DNA from: Gammaproteobacteria bacterium
Lineage (GTDB): Bacteria > Pseudomonadota > Gammaproteobacteria > Pseudomonadales > Ketobacteraceae
Direction: 5' to 3'
NCBI GenBank assembly: GCA_013178375.1
Contig: JABLXQ010000009.1
Location: 82,347-146,346, forward strand
DNA length: 64,000 bases
Positions 16,015 through 31,366 of the stretch are shown here, one piece after another (position 1 is the stretch's first letter; each line of letters starts with the position of its first letter). Both the position numbers and the translations under genes were made by a program. The notes beneath the pieces are model-generated. The model did no database searches. It saw only the letters and a program-made list of their open reading frames with translations, and had not been told where the DNA came from.

Positions 16015-17556
16015 TTACGGCGCCAGCAGGGCCTGCAGCGCGCCGTAATCCACCTTGCCGTTGGCGTTCACCGGCAGGCGCTCCAGGGTCAGGATCTGGC
16101 GCGGCTGCATGTAGGCCGGCAGGGTGGCTGTCAATTGCGCAAGTACCTCTTCCTCCGGCAGCCAGGGCTGCACCACAAACCCGACCACACCGGTGAACAG
16201 GCCATCCGCACTGCGCGGCCAGGGCACCACGGCCGCCAGCTGGGTACCCGCCACCTGGCGCAGACAGTGTTCCACTTCCTGCAATTCCACCCGGTAGCCG
16301 TTGATCTTCACCTGGCGATCCAGCCGCCCGGCGTAGAGGATGCCGAAGTCCGGATGGACGGTGGCGCAATCACCAGTGCGGTACCAACGCGTTTCATCGC
16401 ACCCGGCAAACCACTGCTGCACGAACACGGCAGCGGTTTTTGCGGCGTCCGCCAGATAACCCGCACTGAGCTGCGTGCCCGCCAGCCAGAGCTCACCGCT
16501 TTCACCGGGCGCCGCCAGCGTCGCGTCCTCACGCACCACGCGGGCCTGCTGGCCGGGATAGGGCCAGCCGATAGGCACCACGCTCAGCTGGCGCCAGTCG
16601 TCGCGATCGCGCTGCAGCTCGAACGCGGTGATGGCAATGGTGGCCTCGGTGGGGCCGTACAGGTTGGCGACGCGGGCGTTGGGCGCCGCATCCAGCCAGG
16701 CCAGGGCGCTGGCGGTGGGCAGCGCCTCGCCACAGAAAAAAGAAAATTGCAGCGACGGCAGCACGCCCGGCCGCAACAATCCGCTCTGCTTGGCGATGCT
16801 GGCCATGGAGGGTACGGAAAACCAGACCTGGATCTGCTGCCGGCGCACGAACTGCAGCGGCATCAGCAGATCCTGGGCGGTGGGAATCACCAGACAGCCG
16901 CCCTGCTGCCAGCACACGAACAGATCATGTACCGACAGATCGAAGGTGAGATCAAACATCTGCGAGTAACGCAGGCCCGCCGGCAGGGGATACAGGGCGT
17001 GGAAATTCCGCAGGTAGGCGAGCAGGTTGCCCACGCTGACCGGGATGCCCTTGGGCACGCCGGTGGTGCCCGAGGTGAACAGCAGGTAGGCCGGCAGGTC
17101 GGCGGCGAATTGCGCCAGCGGCGGTGACTGATCCGATGGCTGAATCAGGCGGGCGTCCGGCACGGCCTCATCCAGCGCCAGCACCGACTGTAAATTCGCG
17201 TCTTCCGCCAGACGCTGGCACTGGTCCGCCGCTTCCCCGCCCGCCACCAGCACCCGCGCAGCGGACAGCGTCAACATGCGCTGGTTGCGGGCATCGGGAA
17301 ACGCCGGATTCAGCGGTACCCAGGTAAAGCCCTCGGCCGCACAGGCCAGGATCGCCACATACGCCACCAGGCTGCGGCTGGCCAGCACGGCGACGGGATC
17401 GCCGGTCTGCACGCCGCAGTCGCGCAATGCAACACGACAGCCGTTGACCCAGAGCCCCAGCTCGCGGTAAGAAAAAGTGCTGCCCTGCACACAGAGGGCG
17501 GGCGCATCCGGTGCGGAAAGGAAATTGCGGGCAAAGGTGTCGTGGTAAATATTCAT
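16015..17556 (-). CDS. Stand-alone NRPS-type adenylation domain (amino-acid activating).
   Basis: All A-domain core motifs are present: A3 LLFTSGTTGVPKG, A4 FDLTFDLS (Asp typical of alpha-amino substrates), A5 NLYGPTE, A7 YRTGD, A8 GRLDRQVKINGYRVELQEVE, A10 NANGKVD. There is no fused carrier or C domain. Confidence 0.8.
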   Translation of the reverse strand: MNIYHDTFARNFLSAPDAPALCVQGSTFSYRELGLWVNGCRVALRDCGVQTGDPVAVLASRSLVAYVAILACAAEGFTWVPLNPAFPDARNQRMLTLSAARVLVAGGEAADQCQRLAEDANLQSVLALDEAVPDARLIQPSDQSPPLAQFAADLPAYLLFTSGTTGVPKGIPVSVGNLLAYLRNFHALYPLPAGLRYSQMFDLTFDLSVHDLFVCWQQGGCLVIPTAQDLLMPLQFVRRQQIQVWFSVPSMASIAKQSGLLRPGVLPSLQFSFFCGEALPTASALAWLDAAPNARVANLYGPTEATIAITAFELQRDRDDWRQLSVVPIGWPYPGQQARVVREDATLAAPGESGELWLAGTQLSAGYLADAAKTAAVFVQQWFAGCDETRWYRTGDCATVHPDFGILYAGRLDRQVKINGYRVELQEVEHCLRQVAGTQLAAVVPWPRSADGLFTGVVGFVVQPWLPEEEVLAQLTATLPAYMQPRQILTLERLPVNANGKVDYGALQALLAP

Positions 17557-17701
17557 GCAGAATTTCGCTTCGTTTCCTGCCGGTTGACTACATTAAATTA
17601 CCAGACCACAGCACTCAAAACGGACCGGTTTCATTACAATTCCCGCGTCTGTTTTTTCGACCACTTCAACTTTGTCGATCACTTCACCGGGCCTGTTTGC
17701 G

Positions 17702-18589
17702 ATGGAAGAATCAATTGTCAGCACCTTTCTGATTCCTGGTGTGCTCGCCGCCATGATGGTGGGCATGGGCATGACGCTGCAACCGCTGGATTTCCAGCGT
17801 CTGTATCTGTATCCGAAAGCCGTTATCACAGGCCTGCTGGCGCAGGTGCTGCTGTTGCCGGCACTGGGTTTCCTGATCGTGTCACTGGTGCCGATGGCGC
17901 CGGAACTGGCGGTGGGGCTGATGATCATCGCGCTGTGTCCCGGCGGAGTCGGCTCCAATCTGCTGACCCTGTTGGCACGGGCCGACAGCGCACTGTCCAT
18001 TACACTGACCGCCATCAGCAATGTGCTGATGGTGATCACGCTGCCGGTGTTCATCAATTTTTTCCTGCGCCATTTCATGGGCCAGGGTACCGACATCCAG
18101 CTGCCGGTGCTGCAGACCATCCTGTCCACTGCGCTGCTCACTGTTCTACCCATTGCGGTGGGGATGGCGCTGCGGCGCTATGCCGGCGATCTGTCGGGAC
18201 GCATAGAAACGGGCTTTCGCCGGCTGTCCGTGGCCGTACTGGTGCTGTTGATGCTGGGCATCGGCTGGCGCAACCGCGAGGTGTTCCTGAATTCGCTGTT
18301 GGATCTGGGACCCGCCGCGCTGGCACTCAATCTGGGTTCCATGGCGCTGGGTTTTGCGCTGGCCGCACTGGCCCGGCTGGAATTGTCGCAACGTGTCACC
18401 ATCGCCATTGAAACCGGCTTCCAGAATGCGGCGCTGGCCATCCTGGTGACCACCACCTTCCTGCACAATCCGCAAATGGCACTGGCACCGGCCTTTTACG
18501 GCGGCACCATGTTCATCGGCGGCTTTTTGCTGATTGGTCTGCTGAAACTGAAAGCCCCGCTGGCAACGACCAACGCCACAACCGGCTGA
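17702..18589 (+). CDS. Bile acid:sodium symporter (BASS/SBF) family transporter.
   Basis: About 9 TM, with the family-typical ALCPGGVGSNLLTLLARAD motif. I chose the ATG at 17702; the listed ORF begins at a TTG at 17672. Confidence 0.7.
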   Translation: MEESIVSTFLIPGVLAAMMVGMGMTLQPLDFQRLYLYPKAVITGLLAQVLLLPALGFLIVSLVPMAPELAVGLMIIALCPGGVGSNLLTLLARADSALSITLTAISNVLMVITLPVFINFFLRHFMGQGTDIQLPVLQTILSTALLTVLPIAVGMALRRYAGDLSGRIETGFRRLSVAVLVLLMLGIGWRNREVFLNSLLDLGPAALALNLGSMALGFALAALARLELSQRVTIAIETGFQNAALAILVTTTFLHNPQMALAPAFYGGTMFIGGFLLIGLLKLKAPLATTNATTG

Positions 18590-18633
18590 GTCACTGACAG
18601 CTGAGCCACTGCCTCCGCAAAAAAAGGCAGCGC

Positions 18634-19584
18634 TCAATTCTGTGTCAGCCGATCCACCCAGCCCTGCAGCAGATTCTGCAGCATGGCATCATCAGGACGC
18701 AGGAACGGATGCAGAGCAAGTGTCAGTGTCAGGCAACCATTGAACGTGGCCGCCGCCGCACCGATCGGTGCGGTGCGCGTGCAGGGTGGCGTAAAAAATA
18801 AATAGGGTGCCGCACTGGCATCCCAGTTCCACACACCCAGGTTCGAAAAAGTGCCCATCTGGCTGTTGTTGCTGCCGTAATAACGCTGCACCTGCTTACG
18901 CACCAGACCCGGTCCGAACCGGCAAATCGTGGTGAGAAAATCCCAGCTGCCCCAATGGTGACCGGCATCGAACAGGCCACGAATAATCCGGTGCACCTGC
19001 GCGGGGGAATCCGCATCTTCAAACACCACCGTCACGATGGAGGACTGGTTTTCCTCCACGCTGTCGGCCCGCACCGCGCCGCGCAGATTGATGGTATTGC
19101 CCCACGCCCGCGGCGTGACGGCAGCCGTAAGCTGCTGCGCCGCGACACCGCTCAATGCCCACAGCAGAAAGCTGTTCAGTGTCACCTGCTGGCGCTTGGA
19201 GTTGGCGAGAATCGCCTGGGTCTGCTCCACACTCAGCACCCGCCCCAGACGCAGCGTGGACAGCTTGGCAACGCGGCCATCCGGTGTCGGTGTCCACTGC
19301 CTCCACTGCACCGGCTGCGGTGTGCGGGTGCGGAATTTGCGCCAGGCATAGCGCACCCGCTGCAAGCGCCCGGGCACCACGCCCGCATAGCGCGGCACAT
19401 CGATGCTGACGCCCTGCTGTTTCAGCGCATGCAGGAACATGCCCATGCCATCCACTTCCTGATGCCGCAGATAATGCCAGTGCACCGGATCGTCGTTGCC
19501 ACGCACCGGCGCATAGGCGATGTCCGGATCGTCACCGAATTCCTCCAGAATATCGAACAGGCGGTGAATGTAGTGCGCGGGCAT
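18634..19584 (-). CDS. Hypothetical 316-aa protein, possibly a divergent acyltransferase.
   Basis: I recognise no family. The N-terminal HWHYLRHQEVDG loosely resembles the HHxxxDG acyl-transfer motif; this is weak. Confidence 0.35.
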   Translation of the reverse strand: MPAHYIHRLFDILEEFGDDPDIAYAPVRGNDDPVHWHYLRHQEVDGMGMFLHALKQQGVSIDVPRYAGVVPGRLQRVRYAWRKFRTRTPQPVQWRQWTPTPDGRVAKLSTLRLGRVLSVEQTQAILANSKRQQVTLNSFLLWALSGVAAQQLTAAVTPRAWGNTINLRGAVRADSVEENQSSIVTVVFEDADSPAQVHRIIRGLFDAGHHWGSWDFLTTICRFGPGLVRKQVQRYYGSNNSQMGTFSNLGVWNWDASAAPYLFFTPPCTRTAPIGAAAATFNGCLTLTLALHPFLRPDDAMLQNLLQGWVDRLTQN

Positions 19585-19610
19585 CGTTGCTCCTCAGGTG
19601 GCAGTGCGTT

Positions 19611-20456
19611 TCAGGCGGCAGAGCGTTCGGCCGGCAGCAACAGATTGCCATCAGCATAGTGGGCTTTCCACTTTTCCGTCAGCTCACGGGTGTCTTGCTG
19701 CCAGGGATGAAAATCACGGCGGTAGAAATCGAGAAAATCCCGGCGCAACACCGCACACAGACCACCACGCCCGAACAGGAAGCGCATTCCCTCGCGCCAC
19801 ATGCTGCCGCGCCAGAGCAGCCCGTCATGGCGCAGCATGTGCACCATCCGCGTGCTGATGCGGAAACTGATCAGCGCGATGGCAAAGGTCATCCACACCA
19901 CGCGGGTGCGATAGGCGCCGTCCAGCGTTGCATACACATCCCAGGCCACCGCCTTGTGTTCGATCTCTTCCACCGAATGCCACTGCCACAGCGCTTTGAC
20001 ATGGGGATCAGCCTGCGTCATGAATTCGCCCCGCAACAGCGCCGCCGACAGAATCGACGTGAGATGCTCGCAGGAAATCGTCACCGCCAGCGCCTGCATC
20101 GGCCGCAAAAAACGGCGCAGACGCCCGGTCATGCGGTTCATGGAGCGGTCCATTGCGTCGATGTCATAACCCCAGCGCTTCATCAGCTGGTTGTACTTGG
20201 CATGCTCGCGGGAATGAAAGGCTTCCTGGCCGATGAAAGCGCTGATCTGCTTCTGCAGCTCTGGATCAGCGATCTGCTCGCGCACCTGGCGCAGGGAAAA
20301 AATGAACAGGTCCTCGCCCACCGGCAAGGTGGTGGAGAACGCATCAAAAAAATGACTGATAAACGGTGAGTCCGCGTACCAGAAGCGTGGCGTATCAGCG
20401 GGAAAATCAATGCTGACCGGGCGCGGTTTTATTTCAAGATCCTGCGGTGTTTTCAT
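19611..20456 (-). CDS. Predicted metal-dependent hydrolase family protein (PF10118-like) with ExxH pairs.
   Basis: 281 aa. QEAFHSREHAKY and VEEIEHKAVAWD carry ExxH-type metal ligands. Its start overlaps the desaturase stop by 23 nt. Confidence 0.5.
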   Translation of the reverse strand: MKTPQDLEIKPRPVSIDFPADTPRFWYADSPFISHFFDAFSTTLPVGEDLFIFSLRQVREQIADPELQKQISAFIGQEAFHSREHAKYNQLMKRWGYDIDAMDRSMNRMTGRLRRFLRPMQALAVTISCEHLTSILSAALLRGEFMTQADPHVKALWQWHSVEEIEHKAVAWDVYATLDGAYRTRVVWMTFAIALISFRISTRMVHMLRHDGLLWRGSMWREGMRFLFGRGGLCAVLRRDFLDFYRRDFHPWQQDTRELTEKWKAHYADGNLLLPAERSAA

Positions 20457-21399
20457 GGGGCGCTTCTCCGCCGCTGATCCCTGCGGCCCGGGTTTTTGTT
20501 ATGGCACCGGCGCTCTTTAGTTTGCGCTGGCGGTCTTCCTGCGACACGGTATGAATATCCCACACCCAACCCAGCTGCTCCGCCACTTTCAGCACGCCGT
20601 AGCCGTAATCGATTTGCCACCAAGCGTGGCTGTTTTTGCCGGACTTGGGAAACGCATGATGATTGTTATGCCAGGCACCGCCCAGCGTGACCAGAGCAAA
20701 ACCGGCATTGTTGCGACTGTTGTCCTTGCTGTTGTAAGGCTGCGTGCCCGCCAGATGACACAGGGAATTGATCAGGAAAGTGCCCTGCTGGGTGGCGAAC
20801 AGACGGATCACACCGCCCAGCAGAAAACCACGCAGCGCACCTTCCCAACTCATATCCCACAGGCCGCTCAGTGCAGCAGGCAACGCCAGCCCCAGCAGCA
20901 CCCAGCCATAATAGATTCGCGTTTTCGACAGCCGGGTAATGATAGGATCGCGATACAGCCACAACGCAAACTTGTCCGGCAGTGGCGGCCGGTACGACCA
21001 TTTCCACAACACCTGCGCGTGCAGAAAACCTTTCAGGCGACCCAGCACGCCTTCGCCACTGTGCAGTGGTGTGTGCGTATCCTGTGGCTGGTCGCTAAAG
21101 CGGTGGTGATGAATGTGATTGGTGGCCCAGGCGATCACCGAGCCCTGTCCGCCCATCGACGCAAACACCACCAGCAATCCTTTCAGCCAGGGCCGCACCT
21201 GAAACGCCTGGTGGGAAAAATAGCGGTGATAACCCAGCTCGATACCCACCACCGTGACGAACCACATCAGCAACAGACCCACGAGATCCACCGCCTGCAC
21301 GCCGGTACGCGCGAGCACGACGATGCCCAGCAGCGCGCCCAGAAACGGCACCACATCCAGCAGAATGAAATGCCGTTTTTGCATGGCGGAGATATTCAT
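20434..21399 (-). CDS. Membrane acyl-lipid/acyl-CoA desaturase (fatty acid desaturase family).
   Basis: Three His boxes, HRYFSH, HHHRF and HNNHHAF, plus 4 TM helices. This is the stearoyl-CoA/DesA-type architecture. Confidence 0.85.
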   Translation of the reverse strand: MNISAMQKRHFILLDVVPFLGALLGIVVLARTGVQAVDLVGLLLMWFVTVVGIELGYHRYFSHQAFQVRPWLKGLLVVFASMGGQGSVIAWATNHIHHHRFSDQPQDTHTPLHSGEGVLGRLKGFLHAQVLWKWSYRPPLPDKFALWLYRDPIITRLSKTRIYYGWVLLGLALPAALSGLWDMSWEGALRGFLLGGVIRLFATQQGTFLINSLCHLAGTQPYNSKDNSRNNAGFALVTLGGAWHNNHHAFPKSGKNSHAWWQIDYGYGVLKVAEQLGWVWDIHTVSQEDRQRKLKSAGAITKTRAAGISGGEAPHENTAGS

Positions 21400-21427: not shown

Positions 21428-21655
21428 TCAGGCCAGCTTGGCCGTCACTACATCCAGCAACTGGGACACACTGACGACGCCATCCAGATCTTCCTGCACC
21501 AGGGTGATATCAAGCTCTTCCTGCAGCTCCACCACGGTTTCGATCAGCACGAAGGAATCCGCCACCAGATCGGTGAGGCGTGCATTTTCCGTTACCCGTG
21601 CCGCGTCGATCTTCAGCAGTTTTGCCAGCAGGGCGGTCAGTTCATTGCGTTGCAT
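21428..21655 (-). CDS. Acyl carrier protein (carrier 2).
   Basis: 75 aa, acidic. LTDLVADSFVLIETVVELQEE carries the DSxxxxE phosphopantetheine-attachment motif. Confidence 0.8.
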   Translation of the reverse strand: MQRNELTALLAKLLKIDAARVTENARLTDLVADSFVLIETVVELQEELDITLVQEDLDGVVSVSQLLDVVTAKLA

Positions 21656-21816: not shown

Positions 21817-22380
21817 TCAAAACGCGTAATTCTGCTTGTCGAGAATATGGCCTATCCGTTCACCGTGTTCGGCGATCATGCGGCCATAGACTTCCTCATC
21901 CGCCTTGCGGAAGCGCTCGCAGGTATTCTTCACCCGCTCGGCGCCAAATTTCTCTTCCATCTGCTTGAGTGCATCGCCCACCCACTGGATGTGCCACTTC
22001 TCATCTTCCATGATGGTGTTGAGCGCATGCTGCACCGCCGGATGAATGTCGCGCACACGGGAATGACGGGCGTACTGGGAAATCACACGGCGTTCGAACA
22101 CCATGGTCAGCGCCAGAATCTCCATAATGTTGGTGGGCATGCCCGCCGCTTCCAGGTAATGATCCTGGTAGGCGAACGTCATCTTGATCGGGTCCAGATT
22201 CATGTCGCCCAGGGCCTTGGTCCAGTACCAGGCGTGCTGGCTTTCGTCGGCAAAATGCTTGGTGAGGTCGAACTGGATCGGCCCCGCGGGCAACACCCGC
22301 GCCAGACGGCTGAAAAACTGCGCGCCGGAAATTTCGGAATTGCGGTAAAAGCTGACGATCCAGCGATCGTTGTCATTCAT
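21817..22380 (-). CDS. Ferritin-like superfamily protein (putative small di-iron oxygenase subunit).
   Basis: 187 aa. Two ExxH motifs, ADESQHAWYW and MEDEKWHIQW, spaced about 90 aa apart as in four-helix-bundle di-iron proteins. Confidence 0.5.
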   Translation of the reverse strand: MNDNDRWIVSFYRNSEISGAQFFSRLARVLPAGPIQFDLTKHFADESQHAWYWTKALGDMNLDPIKMTFAYQDHYLEAAGMPTNIMEILALTMVFERRVISQYARHSRVRDIHPAVQHALNTIMEDEKWHIQWVGDALKQMEEKFGAERVKNTCERFRKADEEVYGRMIAEHGERIGHILDKQNYAF

Positions 22381-22391: not shown

Positions 22392-22970
22392 TTATCCGTT
22401 GTGCAGGGCGAATGCCGCTGACAACACTCCTCCGGGAATTTCGATACTGATGTAACGGAAATGCTGCACCCGGCCACCGGCGCGCACACGGGCGGTGCCG
22501 CTGCGACGGTTCGGGTAATCTAGTTCGTACGCGGTAACCCAGCGCTGCTGACCACCCAGATCAGCCTTGAACAGCGCTTCTTTCACCGTCCAGATCCGCA
22601 GCAGGTCACGGCCATTCGCCGCACCCAGTTGCGCATCCTCGCGCCGGGTCAGCATCAACCGGCGATGACGTTCATCCAGCGGACGCCAGGGTTCGAAATC
22701 CAGCCCGACGCCACGATAGGGCGATTGCCGCAGTGCCAGCGCAAAAGTGCGATCGCCTGCATGCGTTAGCGAATGGTCGGCCTGGGCACTGCGCAGCGGG
22801 CCTTCCGGTGCACGCCCCAGCCACTGTCGAGCCGCGCGCAGCAAACGCGCACTGCCGCCGCTGGTCGCAGCTGCGTGCGCCGACCACAACCGCGCATCCA
22901 CATCCGCGAAGTGCGTCAAGCGTTGTTCCAGCGCACCCAGCCGTTGCAGCATCAGACTTCTCTGCCCCAC
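22392..22970 (-). CDS. 4'-phosphopantetheinyl transferase (Sfp/EntD type).
   Basis: The PPTase motifs GVGLDFE (G-x-D) and WTVKEALFKA (W-x-KEA-x-K) are present. Its start overlaps the R-domain gene stop by 19 nt. Confidence 0.85.
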   Translation of the reverse strand: MGQRSLMLQRLGALEQRLTHFADVDARLWSAHAAATSGGSARLLRAARQWLGRAPEGPLRSAQADHSLTHAGDRTFALALRQSPYRGVGLDFEPWRPLDERHRRLMLTRREDAQLGAANGRDLLRIWTVKEALFKADLGGQQRWVTAYELDYPNRRSGTARVRAGGRVQHFRYISIEIPGGVLSAAFALHNG

Positions 22971-24299: not shown

Positions 24300-25159
24300 A
24301 CAGCAGGCGCCTCAGTCATCATGCGGTTTTCCAGGAAATAATCGATGCAGCTTTTTGACACAGCCTGGCGGTGGGCACGACACACTGGCGCATCCCACGC
24401 TTTCTGATACAGCGCATAGCCATTGTCCAAACCTGCGTCTGCGTACACCGCCGGGTTGTAATACTCACGCCAGGTGGACACCATGTAATTGGCAAGATAC
24501 GACTGCACCCCCGCCACCGTCTCCGGTTTCCAGGTGGGCGCCCATTGCTCGAACAGTTTTTTCGACAGCTCGCGGCCAAACGCCAGATGACGGGATTCGT
24601 CGTTGTGGTGATATTGATTGATATGCTGCGCCAGTGGATGCAGTCGCTCGTCCTTGCCCATCGCCAGATTGTAGTGATCCACCAGTTCCTCGAAGATCAC
24701 CACCTTGGCGAAAAACAGAAAATCCGCCTCGCCTTTTTCATACTTGCGCGGAAAACTCAGCTTCTTGTCCGGATACACCTTTTTGCCGTAACGATGGCAG
24801 AAGGTACCGAACACTGTCATGTGCTTGTTTTCTTCATCAAGAAAATGGTGCAGGTATTCCGACAGCTCCGGCGACCAGTCCATGTAATACAGATGCTCGG
24901 CCAGTCCGCCGATCAGCGCTTTTTCACCGTGAATATTCAGGCCGAAAAAATTAACCGTTTCCCAGAATGCCAGTTTTTTCTGCTGCGCCTCGCTTAAAGC
25001 AGCAAATTCTTCCAGGCCATAAATGGAAATGAGTTCCGGGGAAAAATGCCAGTCATCCAGGCTCAATGCATCCGGCCACTGGAATTCCTCATAAGGGCTG
25101 TTATAGCGTTTGACGGAAGCGTCACTCAGCTTGCGGGCGATTTTGGCGAGGCGTTCCAT
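24296..25159 (-). CDS. AurF-like di-iron N-oxygenase family protein (PvfB/HamC-like arylamine/amine oxygenase).
   Basis: 287 aa with the ExxH ligand sets FLDEENKHMTVF and HNDESRHLAFG and an extra carboxylate in VIFEELVDHY. Soluble, with a W/F-rich N-terminus as in the AurF/CmlI family. Family assignment is from motif memory, not a search. Confidence 0.6.
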   Translation of the reverse strand: MERLAKIARKLSDASVKRYNSPYEEFQWPDALSLDDWHFSPELISIYGLEEFAALSEAQQKKLAFWETVNFFGLNIHGEKALIGGLAEHLYYMDWSPELSEYLHHFLDEENKHMTVFGTFCHRYGKKVYPDKKLSFPRKYEKGEADFLFFAKVVIFEELVDHYNLAMGKDERLHPLAQHINQYHHNDESRHLAFGRELSKKLFEQWAPTWKPETVAGVQSYLANYMVSTWREYYNPAVYADAGLDNGYALYQKAWDAPVCRAHRQAVSKSCIDYFLENRMMTEAPAV

Positions 25160-26136
25160 CAGTCAGCTACCTTTTCCAGCAGAATACAGGACCAGTTCAA
25201 ACCGAATCCTGCCATCGGCAGCAGGATCTTGTCGCCGGGCTGAATCTGGCCCTCGGACTGCACGGTTTTCAGATTGATGATGTTGTCGCCGGAAATGCAG
25301 TGGCCGGCAGTACCGATGGTGGGCATCAAAATGCGTTGGAAATCGAAGCGCAGCACGCTGGACAAAATGCGCCACGCCTTGCGGTTGGTGTTCTGGGGCA
25401 CGATCCACTGCACATCCGCCGGGGTGATGCCGGCCTTGCGGCACAGCTCGGTGATCATGCGGTGGCTGTAGCTGAAATAGAAGCCAGCGGTTTCCTCGTC
25501 ATTGGCCGTGGCCATGGCGCCGTTGGTGATGTGGTGGGCGCCCAGGAAGCGGTAACCCCGCGCCTCACGGCTGACGATACAGGCGGCACCGCCGTCGGAG
25601 ATCAGGTTGTAGGCCTGCTCATAGGCAGCGCCTTGGGGAAAACGGTCGGCAGTGATGCAGAGGATATGCTGCATGTCCGGTTCCGCCTGCAGCATTGCGC
25701 TGGCCACGCGGATCGAACCGAGCATGCCGGTGCAGGCCTGCTGGTTGATGCCCATGACATAGGCGTTGTCCATGCCAAAATCCGCCTGTAGGCGGCTGGC
25801 GGGAAAATCCATCAGGTGTTTGACGTCGCGGCTGCTCTCAAACTGGTGCACATCGCCGTTGTTGCCGTTCAGGGGCAGGCAGGTGACATACAGGATCAGA
25901 TCAATTTTGGGCAGCAGATCCCGGGTTTCCGGGTAAGTGGTGAGCATGTCATCCAGAGCACCCCGCGCCAGATCGTAGGCGCTTTCGCCCTCGGGGCAGA
26001 CATGGTGGGTACCAAAACCGGCATCCTCCAGCGCACTGGCAGCCGAGAACAGGCCGTTGGCCGCCTCGGCTTCCGCCAGGGTACGACGCTGGCTGCCCAG
26101 CCGGAAAGCGGGGAAATTCAGATAGATGTCCTTCAT
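25159..26136 (-). CDS. FabH-like (KAS III family) enzyme: condensing enzyme or ACP-dependent acyltransferase.
   Basis: Thiolase-fold. The active-site Cys is in GINQQACTGMLGS. The region expected to hold the FabH His/Asn reads IVPQNTNRKAW / TAGHCISGDN instead of PHQAN / GNTSAAS. Its stop and the downstream ATG share one nucleotide (TGATG). Confidence 0.7.
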   Translation of the reverse strand: MKDIYLNFPAFRLGSQRRTLAEAEAANGLFSAASALEDAGFGTHHVCPEGESAYDLARGALDDMLTTYPETRDLLPKIDLILYVTCLPLNGNNGDVHQFESSRDVKHLMDFPASRLQADFGMDNAYVMGINQQACTGMLGSIRVASAMLQAEPDMQHILCITADRFPQGAAYEQAYNLISDGGAACIVSREARGYRFLGAHHITNGAMATANDEETAGFYFSYSHRMITELCRKAGITPADVQWIVPQNTNRKAWRILSSVLRFDFQRILMPTIGTAGHCISGDNIINLKTVQSEGQIQPGDKILLPMAGFGLNWSCILLEKVAD

Positions 26137-26525
26137 GTACTACGTCCTTTATACGTCAGAGACCGCTTTTGCTCATCGCCGATCAAGCACTTGAAACGAA
26201 CAAAATCGAACGCGATTGGTTAATAATAGTGCAATTCCCAACATGTTGTTCAAATATTAGCCATATCTGGGAGTGGCAAGTGCAGATGTAGCCAGCGGTG
26301 AAACGCCCGGCAATGTTCGTCATTTCCCGACCGGCAGTCAATTAACGGTAAAAAAACGCTACAAATCCCAGCCTAAACAAAACATTGTGGCAGCATCATG
26401 AAATCCGCTCCCGTTACAATGGCTAACAAATCACTCAAGAATATGCACAAGTCCCGCCACGCAAGAATGGATATCCTTAGACACTCAACTTTCATTGATT
26501 GACCATTTTTTGGGCGGATAACGAC

Positions 26526-28256
26526 ATGGATCGTTCAATTTTTAGTATCAAAAAGGAAAGTCCTGTTGCGGATTCCCTGAAATCATTTTCGTTTTCGAAC
26601 CTTTTGCAGGCCGCCGCAGTTGAATATGGCCGCTTTCCCGCCTTTTCTGACCGCAGCGGGGGCCTCTGGCGCAGCCTGGACTTTCGCAATTGCGCCCGCC
26701 GCAGCAATGCCATCGCCTACTGGCTGGAGCAGAAACGGCTCAATACACGCTGCATGATCTTTGCCGAATCCCGTCTGGAGTGGCCGCTGGCCTTCTTCGG
26801 CATCATGAATGCCGGCGCCGTGGCCATTCCGGTGGACGCCAAGTCCACCGCCCAGGAACTGGCCACCTTCATCCGCCACACCCAGCCGGCCGTGCTGATG
26901 CTGTCGCCCAAGCTTCAGGGCGTGGCGGAGCAGGCGGCGGAACTGGCACAGTGGCAGGGTCCGCTGGTGCTGCTGGATCTGGACAACCAGCGCGACAGCC
27001 GCGCCATCGGCACCTTCGAAACCGCCCCCGCCAGTTTTCGCCCCCATTCGCTGAGCGCCAATTCCACCGCCGTGATCGCGTTCACTTCGGCCACGTCAGG
27101 TCAGCCCAAGGCGGTGGAGACAAGCGTGCGCAACCTGTTCCACCAGATGCAGTCGCTGCGCGACCTGTTCGGTGTGAAGCCCGGCGATGCACTGCTGTCG
27201 ATCCTGCCGCTGAGCCATCTGCTGGAATTGTCCTGCGGCTTTCTGGCGGCGTTCGCCAGCGGCGCCCACATCAATTACCTGAATTCGATCCTGCCCAACG
27301 AAATCAAGGATGCGCTGAAGCAGCGGGGCATCACCCACATGATCGTGGTGCCGCTGTTGATGGACATGATTCGCAAGGGCATCGAGCGCAACTTCACCAC
27401 CAAACTCGGCACGCGGGGCGCAACCGTGCTGCAGGGCATGCAGCTGGCATCCAGCCTGGCGCCGACCAATCCGATGCGGCGTTTTCTGAACCGTTTCATC
27501 CTCAGCGAGCTGGGGCCGAAACTGAACACACTGATCGTGGGCGGCGCCACACTCGACCCGTCCACACTCACCTTTTTCAACAACCTGGGCATCAGTTCCT
27601 GGCAAGGCTATGGCCTCACCGAAACCAGCCCGGTGGCGGCGGTGAATTCACCCGGACAGATCAAGCGTGGCTCGGTGGGTCGCGCCATGCCGGGCTGCAG
27701 CATCCGCATCGAGGCGGCGCCGGGGGAAAAAATCGGCGAGATCCTGATTAAAGGCCCCTGCATCATGAACGGCTATTTCAATGACCGCGCCTACACCCGC
27801 GAGGCAATCGACCAGCAGGACTGGTTCCACACCGGCGATCTGGGCTATGTCTGCGACGACGGTTACCTGTTCATCACCGGCCGCAAGAAAAACCTGATCG
27901 TGCTCGATGGCGGCAAGAAGGTGTATCCGGAAGAGGTGGAGAAAGCGCTGTCCGCCAGCCTGCTGTTCCAGGAGCTGTGCGTAACCGGCCTGAAGGTACC
28001 GCATCCATCCATGCCGGGCAAACTGACCGAACAGGTGAGTGCGGTGATCGTGCCCCAGGCCCAGCTGCGGGAATCGAAAAATCTGGCGGATCTGCAAACG
28101 TTGTGCGAACAGGAAGTGCAGCGCCTGTGTCGCGAGCTGTCGTCTTACAAGCGGCCGGTGCAGGTGATCGTACAACTGGAAGAACTGCCCAAAACCCGCA
28201 CCGGCAAGGTGAAAGCGCCGCTGGTGCAGCAACAACTGTCGGCTTCGCATTCGTAA
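26526..28256 (+). CDS. Fatty acyl-AMP ligase / long-chain acyl-CoA synthetase (ANL superfamily).
   Basis: AFTSATSGQPKAV (A3), YGLTETS (A5), WFHTGDLG (A7), GRKKNLIVLDGGKKVYPEEVE (A8) and LPKTRTGKV (A10). The ATG at 26526 lies 27 nt inside the listed TTG-start ORF 26499..28256. It is divergent from the KASIII operon. Confidence 0.8.
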   Translation: MDRSIFSIKKESPVADSLKSFSFSNLLQAAAVEYGRFPAFSDRSGGLWRSLDFRNCARRSNAIAYWLEQKRLNTRCMIFAESRLEWPLAFFGIMNAGAVAIPVDAKSTAQELATFIRHTQPAVLMLSPKLQGVAEQAAELAQWQGPLVLLDLDNQRDSRAIGTFETAPASFRPHSLSANSTAVIAFTSATSGQPKAVETSVRNLFHQMQSLRDLFGVKPGDALLSILPLSHLLELSCGFLAAFASGAHINYLNSILPNEIKDALKQRGITHMIVVPLLMDMIRKGIERNFTTKLGTRGATVLQGMQLASSLAPTNPMRRFLNRFILSELGPKLNTLIVGGATLDPSTLTFFNNLGISSWQGYGLTETSPVAAVNSPGQIKRGSVGRAMPGCSIRIEAAPGEKIGEILIKGPCIMNGYFNDRAYTREAIDQQDWFHTGDLGYVCDDGYLFITGRKKNLIVLDGGKKVYPEEVEKALSASLLFQELCVTGLKVPHPSMPGKLTEQVSAVIVPQAQLRESKNLADLQTLCEQEVQRLCRELSSYKRPVQVIVQLEELPKTRTGKVKAPLVQQQLSASHS

Positions 28257-28300: not shown

Positions 28301-31300
28301 GTGGAATTGTCTGCGGTCATATTATTGACCTTTAACTTTTTATATATCGGCGCCACACCGGCGTTTTTCTTCCGCAAGGACGGCTCGTTCAACCTGATGT
28401 GGTTCATCACCGGGTTGCCGCTGTTTCTGTGGCCGGTTTCCCTGTTCGGTGTGTACTGGGGCTATCTGGAGCCGAACCTGGCCCTGGACAGCGAAATGTA
28501 CGCCAGCATGAAAACCCTGGGCGTGCTGCTCAGCTGCGGCTCCATCGCGCTGATCTCGCTGACGATGGGCACGCACCGCATTCCGCTGGCCCTGTGGCAT
28601 CAGGACAACGACGCGCCGCGCACCATCGTCACCTGGGGCGCTTACCGTTTTATCCGGCATCCGTTTTACACGTCATTCATCATCGCCCACACCGCCGCGC
28701 TGATGATCGCGCCGCACTGGTTCCAGTTGCTGCTGCTGTCCTACCAGATCCTGATCCTGAATCACACCGCCGCGCGTGAGGAACGCAATCTGAGCCAGTC
28801 CAGCTTCGGCGCGGAATACCGTGATTTCATCACCCGCACCGGCCGCTTCTTTCCCAAACCCCGAGCTGCGGCCTTCATGGAAACCTATCTGGTGTGGGTC
28901 ACCCAGTATCGTCATCTGGTGCTGGGCCTGCTGGCCGGCTTCACCATTTTCTTCAGTGTGTTTCTCGTCAACATCGGCATCAACGCCACGCCGTATTTCA
29001 TTTCGCCGGACCATCCGGTGCGCGTCACCGAGTCTGAAATCAAAAGCATTTTCACCAACACGGAAGAACAGGCCTTCGTGGCGCTGGTGGATGAAAAGAA
29101 CGGCATTTTCACCACCGCCAATCTGGAACTGGTGCAAAAACTGACGCAGCAGCTGGAACGGATTTCATTTGCCAGCGACAGCGACCTGGAACGCTTGCGC
29201 AGCATCGCGGGCGACGACGCCGAAGCACAGGCCATCGTGGCCAGGGTTGCGGAAAACGGCATCGGGCTGGACGACGTGGAGCCGCTGCGTCAACTCGCAC
29301 AGCACGGCAAAACCGCGAAGACCCTGACCGCCCAGGAACTGAAAAAAATCGACGACATCATCGTGCGTGCGCGGCCCGTGAAGCGCGTGCGCAGCCTGTT
29401 CACCGTGGAAGACATCCGGGTGGACGGCGACGATCTGGCCATCGATTCCCTGATCGAACGGATTCCGTCGGACAGTGCCGGACTGCAGGCGCTGCAACAG
29501 CACATCATGGCCAATCCGCTGCTGGTGGGCGTGATCGTGTCGCAGGATGGCAAGGCCACCAACATGCAGGTGGAACTGAATATCGCCGAAGACGACTCGC
29601 CCAGCATGCAGGCGGTGTACGCCGCCATTGAAAAACTGCTGGCGGAAGCCGGCGGCGATGCGCAGCTGCATTTTTCCGGTCCGCCGATGGTGACTGCCCA
29701 GATCGCGCAGATCATCCAGCAGGACAACATGCTGTTTTTCCCGCTGGTGTCCACGGTGATCTGTCTGATCCTGTTCATCAGCTTCCGCCGTCTGCAAGCG
29801 GTGGTGCTGACCATGACGGTGTGCACGCTGTCCACGCTCTGGACCATGGGTTTCATGGCCATGTTCGGCATCGACGTGAATATCGTCACCGCCAGCCTGC
29901 CGGTGTTCCTGATGACTATTGCGGTGGCCGATTCCATTCATTACCTGACAGAATATTACGGCCTGCTCAACACCCATGACCGGGTGGAAGCGGCGAAGGT
30001 GGCACTGCGCCATCTGATGAAACCGATGTTCATGACCAGTCTCACCGATTTCTTCGGCTTCATCGCGCTGGCGTACACCAGCCTGGTGTTCGTGCGCGAG
30101 TTCGGTATTTTCATCGCCGTCGGTGCGGTATTCGCCTTCATCATTTCCGTCACCCTGCTGCCCGCCATCCTGCCGCTGCTGAAACAGCCGGCCAACGCCA
30201 GCGAGAACAAGCAGAGCGCGCTGATGAATCCCGTCAACCGTGGTTTCGGCAAACTGTACCTGACATTGGGACGCGCACCGCTGCTGGTGCTGGCGGCCAC
30301 GGCTGCCGTCGCTGCGTTCACCACCTATCTGTCGAGCGAAGTGCGCGTGGACAACCACAACATCGTGCAGTTCAGCGAGGACACCCGCATCCGTCAGGAC
30401 GACGAAATCCTGAATCGTCACTTCGGCGGCACCGTGCCGATCAACGTCTGGTTCAGCGCGGCCGATGAACGCCGTTTCACCCAGCCCGATGTGATCGTCG
30501 CCATGGACCAGATCGCGCAGCGGTTTGAACAGCACGAGATCATCGGTTACGTGGGCTCGCCCAGCAATCTGGTGAAGCGCATTCACCAGCTGCTCAACGA
30601 CACCGACTACGCCCTGCCGGCGGATATGTCGCCGGAGCTGATTGCGCAATATTTCCTGCTCTATGAAAACGGTAACGGTCAGGAAATCCGCGACTCGCTG
30701 GATGAGAATTACCAGAACGCGCGACTGGTGGCACTGTCCCATACCGACCAGTCCTCGAAAGTACGCGCCGTGCTGCAGGATGTGGAGGCATACGCCAAAA
30801 CCGTGCTGCCCGCCGACGTGAAAATGCAGGTTGCCGGCTTCGGCCAGATCATGGTGACCAGCACGGATGAAATCGTGAATGGCCAGATCAGCAGCCTGAC
30901 CATTGCCACGCTGCTGATCGCCGGCGTGATGATCCTGCTGTTCCGCTCCTGGTGGACCGGCGTGCTCAGCGTCATTCCGCTGGCGCTGACTATCCTGATC
31001 AACTTCGGCACCATGAACGGGCTGGGGCTGGATATCGACATCGGCACCGCGCTGATCACCGGCATCGTGTTCGGTATCGGCATCGACTATGCGATCCATC
31101 TGCTGTCGTATATCAAGCGCGCCACCGGCGAAGGCAAGCCCCTGGCCCAGGCCATCGAAGCCGCCATCGAGCATGCCTCCTGGCCGATCATGGTGAACTC
31201 GGTGTGTCTGGCGCTGGGCTTCTGTGTGCTGGTGGCGTCGCACTACGGCTCCACCGGACGCCTGGGCCTGCTGATCGCCGGCACCATGATCGTGTGCGCG

Positions 31301-31366
31301 TTGCTGACGCTGATCGTGTTGCCGGTACTGGTGAAACTGTTCAAACCCAAGGCACTGCAAAACTGA
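28301..31366 (+). CDS. Fusion protein: N-terminal ICMT/PEMT-family membrane methyltransferase plus C-terminal MMPL/RND exporter.
   Basis: GGAAGGAG RBS, then GTG at 28301. Residues 1-185 carry 4-5 TM with RFIRHPFYTSF and EERNLSQSSFGAEYRDFITRTGRFFP (ICMT/PEMT signatures RHPxY and EE..L..FG..Y..Y...R.xP). Residues about 190-1021 form two 6-TM bundles with large periplasmic loops, homologous in layout to the 6990..9377 exporter. Confidence 0.75.
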   Translation: MELSAVILLTFNFLYIGATPAFFFRKDGSFNLMWFITGLPLFLWPVSLFGVYWGYLEPNLALDSEMYASMKTLGVLLSCGSIALISLTMGTHRIPLALWHQDNDAPRTIVTWGAYRFIRHPFYTSFIIAHTAALMIAPHWFQLLLLSYQILILNHTAAREERNLSQSSFGAEYRDFITRTGRFFPKPRAAAFMETYLVWVTQYRHLVLGLLAGFTIFFSVFLVNIGINATPYFISPDHPVRVTESEIKSIFTNTEEQAFVALVDEKNGIFTTANLELVQKLTQQLERISFASDSDLERLRSIAGDDAEAQAIVARVAENGIGLDDVEPLRQLAQHGKTAKTLTAQELKKIDDIIVRARPVKRVRSLFTVEDIRVDGDDLAIDSLIERIPSDSAGLQALQQHIMANPLLVGVIVSQDGKATNMQVELNIAEDDSPSMQAVYAAIEKLLAEAGGDAQLHFSGPPMVTAQIAQIIQQDNMLFFPLVSTVICLILFISFRRLQAVVLTMTVCTLSTLWTMGFMAMFGIDVNIVTASLPVFLMTIAVADSIHYLTEYYGLLNTHDRVEAAKVALRHLMKPMFMTSLTDFFGFIALAYTSLVFVREFGIFIAVGAVFAFIISVTLLPAILPLLKQPANASENKQSALMNPVNRGFGKLYLTLGRAPLLVLAATAAVAAFTTYLSSEVRVDNHNIVQFSEDTRIRQDDEILNRHFGGTVPINVWFSAADERRFTQPDVIVAMDQIAQRFEQHEIIGYVGSPSNLVKRIHQLLNDTDYALPADMSPELIAQYFLLYENGNGQEIRDSLDENYQNARLVALSHTDQSSKVRAVLQDVEAYAKTVLPADVKMQVAGFGQIMVTSTDEIVNGQISSLTIATLLIAGVMILLFRSWWTGVLSVIPLALTILINFGTMNGLGLDIDIGTALITGIVFGIGIDYAIHLLSYIKRATGEGKPLAQAIEAAIEHASWPIMVNSVCLALGFCVLVASHYGSTGRLGLLIAGTMIVCALLTLIVLPVLVKLFKPKALQN

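Follow-up and report, generated by a model that had tools for sequence, protein, structure and literature searches.

In published pathways, a di-iron oxygenase turns carrier-bound glycine into a nitronate, an O-methyl nitronate or an oxime (PMC9967187, section 3.2; PMC12154687, section 9). In those sections, which relay He & Ryan 2021 and the work on althiomycin, the enteromycin carboxamide, akazaoxime/A-76356 and althiomycin modules are outlined as combinations of a loader, a small carrier and a ferritin-like di-iron N-oxygenase that work on the tethered amino group, accompanied by a methyltransferase and feeding an NRPS-PKS line. The Pvf and Ham systems, whose logic is summarized in PMC11659414 and which lead to valdiazen, fragin and pyrazine N-oxides, also direct an AurF-like oxygenase (PvfB/HamC) at a tethered amino acid and use reductase release, here with an A-T-R NRPS (PvfC/HamD); in fragin biosynthesis, a C-type enzyme adds a fatty acyl group. 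In the DltA/DltC system, a small free-standing carrier receives its load from a stand-alone A domain, and in Bll0957/Atu2573-type systems (PDB 3mey, 4h2s), a truncated class-II aaRS homologue lies beside a carrier of ~82 aa. Finally, acyl-activating enzymes, ACPs, membrane desaturases and ferritin-like di-iron proteins that work on a lipid chain are found in the CylA/B/C, JamA/B/C and AAR/ADO systems.

The window, the whole stretch of 64,000 nucleotides analysed here, contains a genuine, single and bounded 15-kb biosynthetic cluster at positions 16015-31366. Gene-by-gene family assignment recovered all 14 parts listed there in the original prediction, and the borders coincide as well, with agreeing coordinates and lgt immediately to the left of the A domain gene. 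The mixed character that had been predicted is evident: stand-alone NRPS-type parts (an A domain, a carrier, a C-like protein and a thioester reductase, TR) occur together with fatty-acid parts and several di-iron proteins. A two-component regulator (HK/RR pair) adjoins the cluster, while in locus L003, which encodes an identical AurF protein, DUF1775/MbnP genes follow the MMPL gene in place of that pair. Translational coupling of the genes was correctly foreseen, but the exact overlap lengths vary with the start codon chosen. The KASIII-like and AurF-type genes overlap by 1 nt, and the AurF-type and carrier 1 genes by 4 nt. For carrier 1 and the TR gene, taking the ATG at 24049 leaves a 1-nt spacer, and taking the TTG at 24067 gives a 17-nt overlap; the TR and PPTase genes overlap by 1 nt (TGATG, ATG 22952), or by 19 nt with the GTG at 22970. 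The desaturase and PF10118 genes overlap by 23 nt. Between the KASIII-like gene on the minus strand and the acyl ligase gene on the plus strand is an ORF-free region of 362 bp (26137..26498), a probable bidirectional promoter region between two operons. It holds a lone sigma-70-like site at 26252-26223 on the minus strand, a number no higher than chance.

The gene set co-occurs strongly across genomes, as the original prediction implied. Among distant loci with sufficient flanking sequence, which come from a dozen or more bacterial phyla (for example Cyanobacteriota, Nitrospirota, Acidobacteriota, Actinomycetota and Bdellovibrionota), the core cassette is on the same strand and in the same order in 39/39. 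Its parts are the acyl ligase, the membrane methyltransferase, the KASIII-like enzyme, the AurF-like di-iron oxygenase, carrier 1, the reductase, in some loci the PPTase, the small ferritin-like di-iron protein and carrier 2. The KASIII-like enzyme, the oxygenase, the TR and the small di-iron protein are each present in all 39 cassettes, carrier 1 and a ligase of the amino acid:carrier-protein type (aa:CP ligase) in 38 each, carrier 2 in 37, a free-standing methyltransferase in 35, the acyl ligase in 28 and the PPTase in 19. Homologue alignments indicate that the catalytic residues are kept in every core protein. The cluster in the window is one lineage's version of a ten-gene cassette, to which this lineage has added the A domain, the BASS transporter, the C-like protein, the PF10118 protein, the desaturase and the MMPL fusion.

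The window's clade stands apart in the enzyme available to load carrier 1. In other lineages, an aaRS-like, Bll0957-type aa:CP ligase (PDB 3mey, E 1e-28) comes after carrier 1, and this ancestral form of the cassette has just the arrangement of the Bll0957/Atu2573-type systems, a truncated class-II aaRS homologue beside a carrier of ~82 aa. No aa:CP ligase was found in the window's clade, which is the only one to have the stand-alone NRPS-type A domain instead (16015..17556, minus strand; 513 aa; PF00501/PF13193). In a rough NJ tree, the oxygenase of the window's clade is nested within the ligase-type clade; in this lineage, the A domain has replaced the aaRS-like ligase. The A domain scores 342.7 bits with the NRPS model TIGR01733, clearing its cut-off of 317.4, and in PDB comparison its closest relative of solved structure is LgrA's second A domain. 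LgrA module 2 activates glycine. DltA models are its second-best NCBIfam matches and DltA structures are among its PDB matches, but the score of 264 bits is far under the DltA cut-offs of 476 and 560, the window has neither DltB nor DltD genes, and the A domain gene sits in a biosynthetic operon. With the NRPS model passed and the DltA models failed, the NRPS-type assignment stands. No textbook glycine code is like its ten-residue code, DLHFFCLIAK. The code DLFFLCLIAK, which has 8/10 residues in common with it, is found in all A domains lying next to a homologous oxygenase and carrier, including that of an Azospirillum A-ACP-MT-oxygenase-NRPS-PKS cassette. By analogy, the A domain is proposed to load carrier 1, probably with glycine.

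Carrier 1 itself (24051..24299, minus strand; 82 aa) is a PCP-type aminoacyl carrier with a serine, Ser39, that is invariant in 77 homologues. A Pfam search gave no match, and PDB comparison gave weak matches to two PCPs, PigG and PltL, and to the Bll0957 system's aminoacyl carrier protein 1. In all contexts examined, it is located between the oxygenase and the loader. The Sfp-type 4'-phosphopantetheinyl transferase (22392..22952, minus strand; PF01648), of 186 aa from the ATG at 22952 or 192 aa from the GTG at 22970, has conserved G87xD91xE93 and W127TxKE131 motifs.

The ferritin-like di-iron oxygenase (24296..25159, minus strand; 287 aa; PF11583, 126 bits) has invariant residues E79, E110xxH113, E157/158 and H184xxxE188xxH191, and its ligands align with AurF E196, H223, E227 and H230, giving an AurF-type set that includes the third histidine. 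Sequence similarity to AurF is marginal (E 0.8), and the closest solved folds to its AF2 model (pLDDT 91.9) are CmlI and AurF; together with the PF11583 match, these folds assign it to the AurF family, not to a housekeeping family, in agreement with the earlier assignment. It is 31-39% identical to oxygenases whose neighbouring genes carry the annotation nitronate monooxygenase or SAM methyltransferase, and 33% identical to that of the Azospirillum cassette. "Nitronate monooxygenase" is a generic annotation here; by score, the proteins that bear it are no more than weak relatives of the FabK family. Likened through the gene context of its relatives, the trio of loader, carrier and di-iron oxygenase appears to match the published glycine-to-nitronate/oxime module; the comparison with enteromycin and althiomycin is by description and through relatives. 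The original prediction recognised no characterised pathway in this combination, which holds for the full lipid cassette, of which no description was found in the literature, but not for the trio. By the same analogy, the AurF-type protein is proposed to be an N-oxygenase acting on aminoacyl-S-carrier 1. The amino acid is likely to be glycine, oxidised to the nitro/nitronate or oxime level, and the amino-aldehyde or amino-alcohol with a basic amine that had been suggested is therefore less likely. There are also differences from the glycine nitronate modules. In place of an NRPS-PKS line, the window has a KASIII-like enzyme, a stand-alone TR, a second di-iron protein and a ligase/ACP arm, and it lacks a nitronate monooxygenase. 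Its methyltransferase is of the membrane ICMT/PEMT type and MMPL-fused, whereas the Tistrella and Azospirillum cassettes have soluble SAM methyltransferases, a difference in family that we count against the nitronate reading.

The ligase/ACP arm begins with an ANL-family acyl-activating enzyme resembling fatty acyl-AMP/CoA ligases (26499..28256, plus strand; PF00501/PF13193; start 26526 and 576 aa according to other gene callers). It scores under the cut-offs of long-chain fatty-acid-CoA ligase models, and its nearest solved relatives, with which residues of about 294-367 do not align, are acyl-CoA ligases (including malonyl-CoA synthetase) and luciferases, the FAAL 3pbk ranking lower. The ACP-type carrier 2 (21428..21655, minus strand; 75 aa; PF00550) is under the cut-offs of the ACP NCBIfam models; its Ser34 is invariant in 50 homologues, and it is proposed to be the acyl carrier. 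The KASIII (FabH)-like enzyme (25159..26136, minus strand; PF08541/PF08545) is the proposed catalyst for linking the acyl chain with the oxidised amino-acid unit, and its gene is directly upstream of the oxygenase gene in all 39 distant cassettes. It resembles FabH/KASIII, CerJ, ChlB3 and DpsC in its thiolase fold, nucleophilic cysteine and length, and scores under every NCBIfam FabH cut-off. Cys135 is conserved, but in place of the catalytic FabH residues His244 and Asn274 there are Gln248 (followed by Asn249) and His279, respectively, a substitution invariant in 64 sequences. The stand-alone thioester-reductase-type SDR (22952..24049, minus strand; 365 aa, or 371 aa with the TTG at 24067) has conserved GxxGYxG and Y162xxxK166 motifs; its top score is to NAD_binding_4 (PF07993, 108.6 bits) and not to Epimerase (60.7 bits), consistent with the predicted reductase and not with an epimerase-type housekeeping enzyme. 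TIGR01746, at 97 bits, is under cut-off.

The small ferritin/rubrerythrin-like di-iron protein (21817..22380, minus strand; 187 aa; PF02915, 24.7 bits) belongs to a cassette-specific family of just 537 clusters, labelled "ferritin-like", and its residues E16, H42, E46, H49, E96, E127 and H130 are kept in at least 97% of 56 homologues. At the far end of the cluster, an ICMT/PEMT-like methyltransferase (about residues 1-190) is fused to an MMPL/HAE3-type RND transporter (28301..31366, plus strand; PF04140, PF04191, PF03176, PF12349 and PF00873, with TIGR00921/TIGR00833 under cut-off). This fusion occurs only in loci L001-L012; in L088, a free-standing methyltransferase of 200 aa shares 50% identity with the fusion's N-terminal part.

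Among the accessory proteins, the BASS/SBF-family transporter (17672..18589, plus strand; start 17702 and 295 aa according to other gene callers) is TIGR00841-like (175.8 bits, under cut-off). The identical gene in L001 matches PF01758/PF13593, and a BASS gene accompanies the A domain gene in L008, L010, L011 and L012. Because this transporter occupies the plus strand, the opposing minus-strand ORFs 17593-18153 and 18146-18637 are spurious. The product of orf316 (18634..19584, minus strand; 316 aa), a minimal stand-alone condensation-domain-like acyltransferase, had no match in Pfam, NCBIfam or PDB sequence searches, and its family is rare, with 24 clusters and one distant member that matches PapA_C. 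Residues H41, D45 and G46 of its HxxxDG motif are invariant, and the top Foldseek matches of its AF2 model (pLDDT 89.8) are NRPS E/C/Cy domains and WS/DGAT, which bears out the acyltransferase-like label first given to this orphan. The membrane fatty-acid desaturase-family protein (20434..21399, minus strand; 321 aa; PF00487, 65.8 bits) has the His boxes HRYFSH, HHHRF and HNNHH in its translation and is missing from L011/L012 and most distant cassettes. The PF10118 "predicted metal-dependent hydrolase" (19611..20456, minus strand; 268 bits), with two ExxH motifs, appears to be the partner of the desaturase; the pair also lies beside the cassette in L078 (Kofleriaceae). The PDB holds no relative of the PF10118 protein, and the literature gave no informative account of it.

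From the gene content, catalytic motifs, synteny and loader swap described above, we infer the following chemistry. We read the region as a two-carrier lipid biosynthetic cluster in which, by analogy, carrier-bound glycine would be converted to a nitro-type group, joined to a fatty chain, reduced, methylated and exported, and we give this reading a probability of roughly 0.55. The predicted outline of an N-oxygenated amino-acid unit and a fatty chain, followed by reductive release, methylation and export, fits the parts. The PPTase would prime carriers 1 and 2. The A domain would put a small amino acid, most likely glycine, on carrier 1, a role of the aaRS-like aa:CP ligase in other lineages, and the AurF-type oxygenase would convert the tethered amine to a nitro/nitronate (nitroacetyl-S-carrier) or an oxime, as in the enteromycin and althiomycin analogy. 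The acyl ligase would transfer a fatty acid to carrier 2, and in the window's lineage, the desaturase and its PF10118 partner may alter this chain. Cys135 of the KASIII-like enzyme would accept the acyl group, which the enzyme would link to the oxidised glycyl unit. We favour C-acylation at the acidic nitronate carbon, for which decarboxylation would be unnecessary; the invariably replaced FabH His/Asn pair would be consistent with this. The TR would free the product as an aldehyde or alcohol, the small di-iron protein may carry out one further oxidation, and the ICMT-like domain would methylate the lipid, possibly on the nitronate oxygen, for export by the fused MMPL transporter. The C-like acyltransferase and BASS transporter would be lineage-specific extras.

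For the KASIII-like enzyme, N- or O-acyltransferase activity is an equal possibility, as in CerJ, ChlB3 and DpsC, which are among its PDB matches. It may be, though we consider it unlikely, that it N- or O-acylates an (N-hydroxy)aminoacyl-S-carrier and that the reductase yields an N-acyl amino aldehyde or alcohol (N-acylethanolamine-like or a hydroxamate lipid), essentially as first proposed; both di-iron enzymes would then hydroxylate or desaturate this lipid, and the PEMT-like domain would methylate it. Acyltransferase activity is frequent among KASIII-like enzymes that lack the canonical triad, the Cys-Gln/Asn-His site does not vary, and lipids are substrates of ICMT/PEMT-family methyltransferases. 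However, this does not account for a 3-His AurF-type oxygenase tied to a carrier and loader in every context, or for the neighbours of homologous trios that are annotated as nitronate monooxygenases.

More doubtful is a split Pvf/Ham-type pathway, in which an aliphatic amino acid would only be N-hydroxylated and the reductase would free an N-hydroxy amino aldehyde destined for signals of the pyrazine N-oxide/diazeniumdiolate type, with later acylation by the C-like protein in the manner of HamF. The same parts (A, T, R and an AurF-like N-oxygenase for a tethered amino acid) are present as separate proteins, orf316 is condensation-domain-like, as predicted for HamF, and the cluster adjoins a two-component regulator. 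Compared by description, however, the window differs in that separation, in a predicted small amino acid as opposed to Val, and in its KASIII-like joiner; counterparts of HamA, HamB, HamE and HamG are absent from the window by Pfam family assignment. The A-domain code is common to A domains from cassettes in which the oxygenase is accompanied by SAM methyltransferases, NRPS-PKS or glycosyltransferases and not by A-T-R proteins, and most lineages load via the aa:CP ligase, from a family with members reported to use Gly, Ala or Ser for loading (PMC9437257). Nearly all cassettes lack orf316, whereas the KASIII-like enzyme is universal, and a plasmid-wide tblastn search (E<=0.01) gave no Pseudomonas or Burkholderia match. 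Very improbable is a pathway that only modifies fatty acids, leading to hydrocarbons, halogenation or alkynes, with the AurF-like protein acting on acyl-ACP like CylC or the desaturase JamB, the reductase and small di-iron protein making an aldehyde and then an alkane as in AAR/ADO, and the amino-acid parts incidental. The ligase, ACP and di-iron enzyme resemble the CylA/B/C logic (PMC8406957), and a TR beside a small ferritin-like di-iron protein recalls cyanobacterial AAR/ADO, but the profile match to the aldehyde decarbonylase 5k52 is non-significant (E 0.66), profile and sequence comparison gave no significant relation to CylC or ADO, the oxygenase goes with an aminoacyl and not an acyl carrier (an amino-acid loader and PCP-type carrier flank it in 38/39 cassettes and all other contexts examined), and it has the third His typical of N-oxygenases, with CmlI and AurF as nearest folds.

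The biological role of aa:CP ligases was still termed unknown in a 2022 review (PMC9437257). While it is not proof of that role, the cassette provides these ligases with a context for it.

The cluster at 16015-31366 is a lineage-specific elaboration of a gene cassette that is spread over many phyla. It consists of 14 genes, whose assignment by family profiles matches the parts list of the original prediction throughout. The minus strand encodes an NRPS-type adenylation (A) domain, a 316-residue protein without a profile match (orf316, 18634-19584), a PF10118 protein, a membrane FA_desaturase, an ACP (carrier 2, 75 residues, 21428-21655), a rubrerythrin/ferritin-like protein of 187 residues (the small di-iron protein, 21817-22380), an Sfp-type PPTase, an NAD_binding_4 reductase (the thioester reductase, TR, 22952-24049), a second, PCP-type carrier (carrier 1, 82 residues, 24051-24299), a PF11583 AurF-family protein (the oxygenase, 24296-25159) and a KASIII-like protein. 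A BASS transporter, a divergent AMP-binding ligase and an ICMT-like/MMPL fusion are encoded on the plus strand. Two minus-strand ORFs, 17593-18153 and 18146-18637, were rejected as genes because they are spurious shadows of the plus-strand BASS gene (17672-18589). The tight coupling proposed earlier is borne out by overlaps of 1 nt (KASIII/oxygenase) and 4 nt (oxygenase/carrier 1) and by the junctions TGA-a-ATG (carrier 1/TR) and TGATG (TR/PPTase), with exact nucleotide figures that hinge on the choice of start codons.

To establish how widely the set occurs, one genome per species was scanned with an alignment of AurF-like proteins, yielding 80 loci against which every window protein was compared by tblastn; 39 distant loci had sufficient flank for scoring. 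All 39 contain the KASIII-like gene, the oxygenase, TR and the small di-iron protein; carrier 1 is found in 38 and carrier 2 in 37, with the acyl ligase present in 28 and the PPTase in 19. A free-standing ICMT-like methyltransferase of 200 residues occurs in 35 of the 39, and the methyltransferase-MMPL fusion is seen only in the clade of the window. Gene order, nearly always on a single strand, is ligase, methyltransferase, KASIII, oxygenase, carrier 1, a gene designated X, TR, (PPTase), small di-iron protein and carrier 2. Hosts include Nostoc, Stigonema, Planktothrix, Obscuribacterales, Nitrospirota, Blastocatellia, Acidimicrobiales, Bdellovibrionota, Omnitrophota, Planctomycetota, Myxococcota and others, and one cultured, fully sequenced carrier is Bdellovibrio sp. 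HCB337 (locus L067). Since core genes recur in up to 39 of the 39 scorable distant loci, and the catalytic residues of every core protein are conserved, the possibility raised in the original prediction that the genes show no conserved co-occurrence clearly fails. The desaturase/PF10118 pair and orf316 are accessory: they are lacking in L011 and L012, two loci of the window's own clade, and the pair is also found in one Kofleriaceae locus.

The cluster is flanked by lgt-thyA-folA on one side and by a RegB/RegA-like pair, then ptsP, on the other. In L003, where the AurF protein is identical, the genes that come after MMPL are unrelated, and the limits first drawn for the cluster are therefore kept. 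The histidine kinase/response regulator pair (31493-33354) was considered as a cluster member and rejected because L003 carries different genes at that place. This plus-strand pair, which resembles the RegB/RegA (ActS/ActR) redox system and scores under the equivalog cut-offs, directly follows the exporter gene; it adjoins the cluster in L001, L008 and L010 and not in L003. The G+C content of the cluster is not distinct from that of its flanks, Rfam gave no match in the window, and promoter-like sites occur no more often than chance predicts. The closest genomes are those of uncultured Ketobacter-like gammaproteobacteria.

Several other features of the window lie outside the cluster. A second MMPL-family transporter of 795 residues (6990-9377, plus strand) is encoded 7 kb to its left, and a 691-residue histidine kinase (3663-5738) lies about 1.3 kb upstream of that transporter. 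A 1775-residue protein (41470-46797, minus strand) with DUF3686 ('ATPase involved in DNA repair'), DUF7902 and a C-terminal AAA domain is followed by a 696-residue ORF without a Pfam match (46905-48995, minus strand), and the two might form a defence or repair system. At 60-64 kb, G+C falls from about 0.60 to 0.51 around a 1135-residue ORF without a Pfam match (60516-63923, minus strand); this segment may have been horizontally acquired.

In 38 of the 39 distant cassettes, gene X, which follows carrier 1, encodes a tRNA-synt_2b protein of about 290 residues that is homologous to Bll0957, a structurally characterised amino acid:carrier-protein ligase (PDB 3mey, E 1e-28). This truncated class-II aminoacyl-tRNA synthetase (aaRS) homologue is absent from the window and from L001-L012, the loci of its clade. 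Whereas the ligase adjoins the carrier in Bll0957-type cassettes, the window clade has a stand-alone A domain and the BASS gene instead. In a rough neighbour-joining tree, built without support values, the oxygenase of this clade falls among those of the ligase-type clade. The most economical account has the aaRS-like loader replaced by an NRPS A domain, and carrier 1 would therefore bear an amino acid. A 2022 review still calls the biological function of amino acid:carrier-protein ligases unknown (PMC9437257).

The A domain passes TIGR01733 (342.7 bits against a cut-off of 317.4), and its specificity code starts with D and ends with K (D235 and K517). In contrast, it scores far under the cut-offs of the DltA equivalog models (264 bits against 476 and 559.85). 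The ten-residue code, DLHFFCLIAK, is identical in its four relatives, and the near-identical DLFFLCLIAK occurs in all A domains beside a homologue of the cluster's oxygenase, in enteromycin-like and related cassettes and with that of Azospirillum included; as a control on code extraction, a GrsA fragment gave its known code. Among solved structures the A domain is closest to the second one of LgrA, which activates glycine. Glycine is probably also what the A domain loads onto carrier 1. For the akazaoxime cluster, the substrate of the glycine-loading NRPS is described as not predictable bioinformatically (PMC9967187).

The neighbouring oxygenase is predicted to be an AurF/CmlI-type N-oxygenase by profile, ligand set and fold. 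It scores 126.1 bits against PF11583 (cut-off 29.6), and across 20 diverse sequences there is no change at E79, E110, H113, E157/158, H184, E188 or H191, giving a site of the form E, ExxH, E, HxxxExxH. H184, E188 and H191 align with H223, E227 and H230 of AurF, third histidine included. Sequence similarity to AurF is marginal; the best Foldseek matches are CmlI (5hyh) and AurF (2jcd/3chu), with TM of about 0.6 and 11-13% identity, and R2lox and RNR R2 rank behind them. A reading as a CylC-type halogenase is not supported by context or ligand set.

The trio of oxygenase, carrier and loader also occurs in other settings. Inside glycosyltransferase or PKS/NRPS clusters, homologues of the oxygenase accompany a carrier and a stand-alone A domain of 40% identity, and Azospirillum plasmid p5 has an A domain, an ACP, a SAM methyltransferase, the oxygenase, an NRPS and a PKS. 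On Tistrella mobilis pTM2 (L089, 305501-309811), a compact operon encodes the oxygenase, an 85-residue carrier, an aaRS-related ligase, an annotated 'nitronate monooxygenase' and a SAM methyltransferase. A similarly compact operon on an Agrobacterium vitis plasmid (L090, 220700-224621) comprises the oxygenase, a carrier, a ligase homologue annotated merely as 'hypothetical protein', an annotated nitronate monooxygenase and a PPTase. On a plasmid of Streptomyces sp. NBC_00335 (L091, 147-160 kb), the oxygenase, carrier, aaRS-like ligase and PPTase sit beside type II KS/CLF, two ACPs, FabI and a ketoreductase, which hints at a further pathway to a lipid or polyene, with an oxidised amino acid as the primer. 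Relative to the window proteins, the trio homologues show identities of 31-39% (oxygenase), 37% (A domain) and 23-31% (carrier, where matched), and the ligases of the trio cassettes are 35-42% identical to that of the cassette at L088. At one further locus, L066, a trio of oxygenase, carrier and A domain neighbours an NRPS with a formyltransferase domain ahead of its A domain, into which a luciferase-like monooxygenase is inserted, together with a KS-AT-KR-DH-ACP-TE PKS (regions 12636-17513 and 3087-9836 of that locus).

These contexts recall published chemistry. As summarised in section 3.2 of PMC9967187 and section 9 of PMC12154687, He & Ryan (Nat Chem 2021) describe the conversion of carrier-bound glycine to a nitronate intermediate by a di-iron oxygenase. 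According to the same sections, this intermediate is O-methylated in enteromycin carboxamide and A-76356, and an aldoxime form appears in althiomycin and akazaoxime; the title of He & Ryan (2021) points to denitrification as a third fate (PMC9967187; PMC12154687). The Azospirillum and the Tistrella/Agrobacterium cassettes look like two branches of this glycine-nitronate chemistry. By context, the oxygenase of the cluster would belong to the same module; it is 31-39% identical to the oxygenases of cassettes that also encode an annotated nitronate monooxygenase or a methyltransferase. The methyltransferase of the cluster comes from the ICMT/PEMT family, whereas those of the Tistrella and Azospirillum cassettes are soluble SAM enzymes. 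No PF03060-type protein (nitronate monooxygenase) was found in the cluster by Pfam. The original prediction knew of no characterised pathway with these genes. The amino acid/oxygenase part would answer to a module already described, and of the whole cassette the literature searched contains no description. The interpretation in the original prediction survives in outline, having missed the known module, the cassette of many phyla and the A domain as a replacement for an aaRS-like ligase.

The KASIII-like protein shares the catalytic cysteine of FabH, but Gln248-Asn249 replaces FabH His244 and His279 replaces FabH Asn274 in 64 of 64 sequences, leaving the Cys-His-Asn triad incomplete, and the best score against FabH models is 66.7 bits (cut-off 315). 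Because this swap is without exception, the protein is predicted not to be a standard decarboxylating condensing enzyme. A role as an acyltransferase in the manner of CerJ, ChlB3 and DpsC fits, as does one as a condensing enzyme with a nitronate-carbon nucleophile, for which no decarboxylation is required. TR has PF07993 as its top Pfam match (108.6 bits) and retains the SDR motifs of thioester reductases, the Rossmann GxxGxxG (G16/G19 conserved) and the catalytic YxxxK (Y162/K166 conserved); its score against TIGR01746 is under the cut-off (97 bits against 213), and it is therefore a divergent member. A full E/ExxH/E/ExxH site and a conserved H42 mark the small di-iron protein, whose family is compact (537 clusters) and bears no informative name. 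The spacing of its invariant H42xxxE46xxH49 is that which AurF-type N-oxygenases show in their third-histidine motif, but it lies on the first ExxH helix.

Among the accessory proteins, orf316 belongs to a rare family (24 clusters) in which H41, D45 and G46 (HxxxDG) are invariant. It is shorter than canonical condensation domains. Foldseek aligns its AF2 model (pLDDT 89.8), which has the two-lobed CAT-like fold, with the condensation, epimerisation and cyclisation domains of NRPSs and with WS/DGAT at a probability of 1.0 (TMq 0.5-0.63). Motif and model thus agree with its earlier description as an orphan acyltransferase-like protein, and it is predicted to be a minimal free-standing C-domain-like acyltransferase. 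The acyl ligase is an ANL enzyme with an unaligned insertion at about residues 294-367; among solved structures it is closest to acyl-CoA ligases and luciferases, and the FAAL 3pbk ranks below these. NCBIfam has no model for the oxygenase, the small di-iron protein, orf316, PF10118 or the methyltransferases of related cassettes. PDB sequence searches with orf316, PF10118 and the small di-iron protein came back empty, and searches of the literature on PF10118 and on amino acid:carrier-protein ligases with di-iron enzymes gave nothing useful.

The gene content, motifs, synteny and loader swap are observed directly. The substrates, oxidation level, bond formed, order of steps and product would be as follows. 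The PPTase would prime both carriers, the A domain would place glycine on carrier 1, and the tethered amine would be N-oxygenated to the nitro/nitronate (or oxime) level. Carrier 2 would receive a fatty acyl group, the KASIII-like enzyme would carry out the joining, and TR would release the product reductively; further oxidation may fall to the small di-iron protein, and the ICMT-MMPL fusion would methylate and export. In its most specific form, to which we would give roughly one chance in five, the product is a previously unseen class of nitro/nitronate lipid. Nitroacetyl-S-carrier 1 would be C-acylated with a fatty acyl group by the KASIII-like enzyme through its rewired site (Cys/Gln-Asn/His), release by TR together with the small di-iron protein (possibly through ADO-like deformylation) would give an alpha-nitroketone lipid, and the membrane methyltransferase would convert this to an O-methyl nitronate. 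The nitroacetyl unit could serve as a malonyl surrogate without decarboxylation because its alpha-carbon is acidic.

Rival products are an N-acyl amino aldehyde or alcohol lipid and the product of a purely fatty-acid pathway. A hydroxylamine pathway like those of Pvf and Ham is a further rival, but the A, carrier and R functions are separate genes here rather than a single A-T-R NRPS, and the cluster has, by Pfam, no haem-oxygenase-like, cupin, cyclase or aminotransferase genes, the accessories of PvfA/HamA and PvfD/HamE type. The nocuolin A (noc) cluster, which also contains FAALs, ACPs and distant relatives of AurF, was rejected as a counterpart because it is a PKS/NRPS system of 38-42 kb whose gene set differs. 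An ADO/alkane reading was dropped, an insignificant profile match being all that stood behind it. The housekeeping readings that the original prediction had flagged (DltA, sugar epimerase, RNR-R2) all fail on profile scores and fold search, where the NRPS model, PF07993 and the CmlI/AurF folds win.

The cluster bears on both natural-product and lipid biochemistry. The loader swap is a clean natural case of non-orthologous displacement between ribosomal-type and non-ribosomal-type amino acid activation. If the proposed pathway is right, three enzyme types become targets for characterisation: the KASIII-like enzyme with its swapped pair, the cassette-specific small di-iron protein and the ICMT-like/MMPL fusion. 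Experiments are feasible, since Bdellovibrio sp. HCB337 is cultured and sequenced. Amino acid:carrier-protein ligases would gain a testable physiological context, in a pathway found in a dozen or more bacterial phyla. A conserved operon of Cyanobacteriota, Nitrospirota, Acidobacteriota, Actinomycetota, Bdellovibrionota, Planctomycetota and others would encode a never-isolated lipid with a reactive N-O group, and the recently discovered glycine-to-nitronate chemistry of a few antibiotic pathways would gain a role that is broad and probably physiological.
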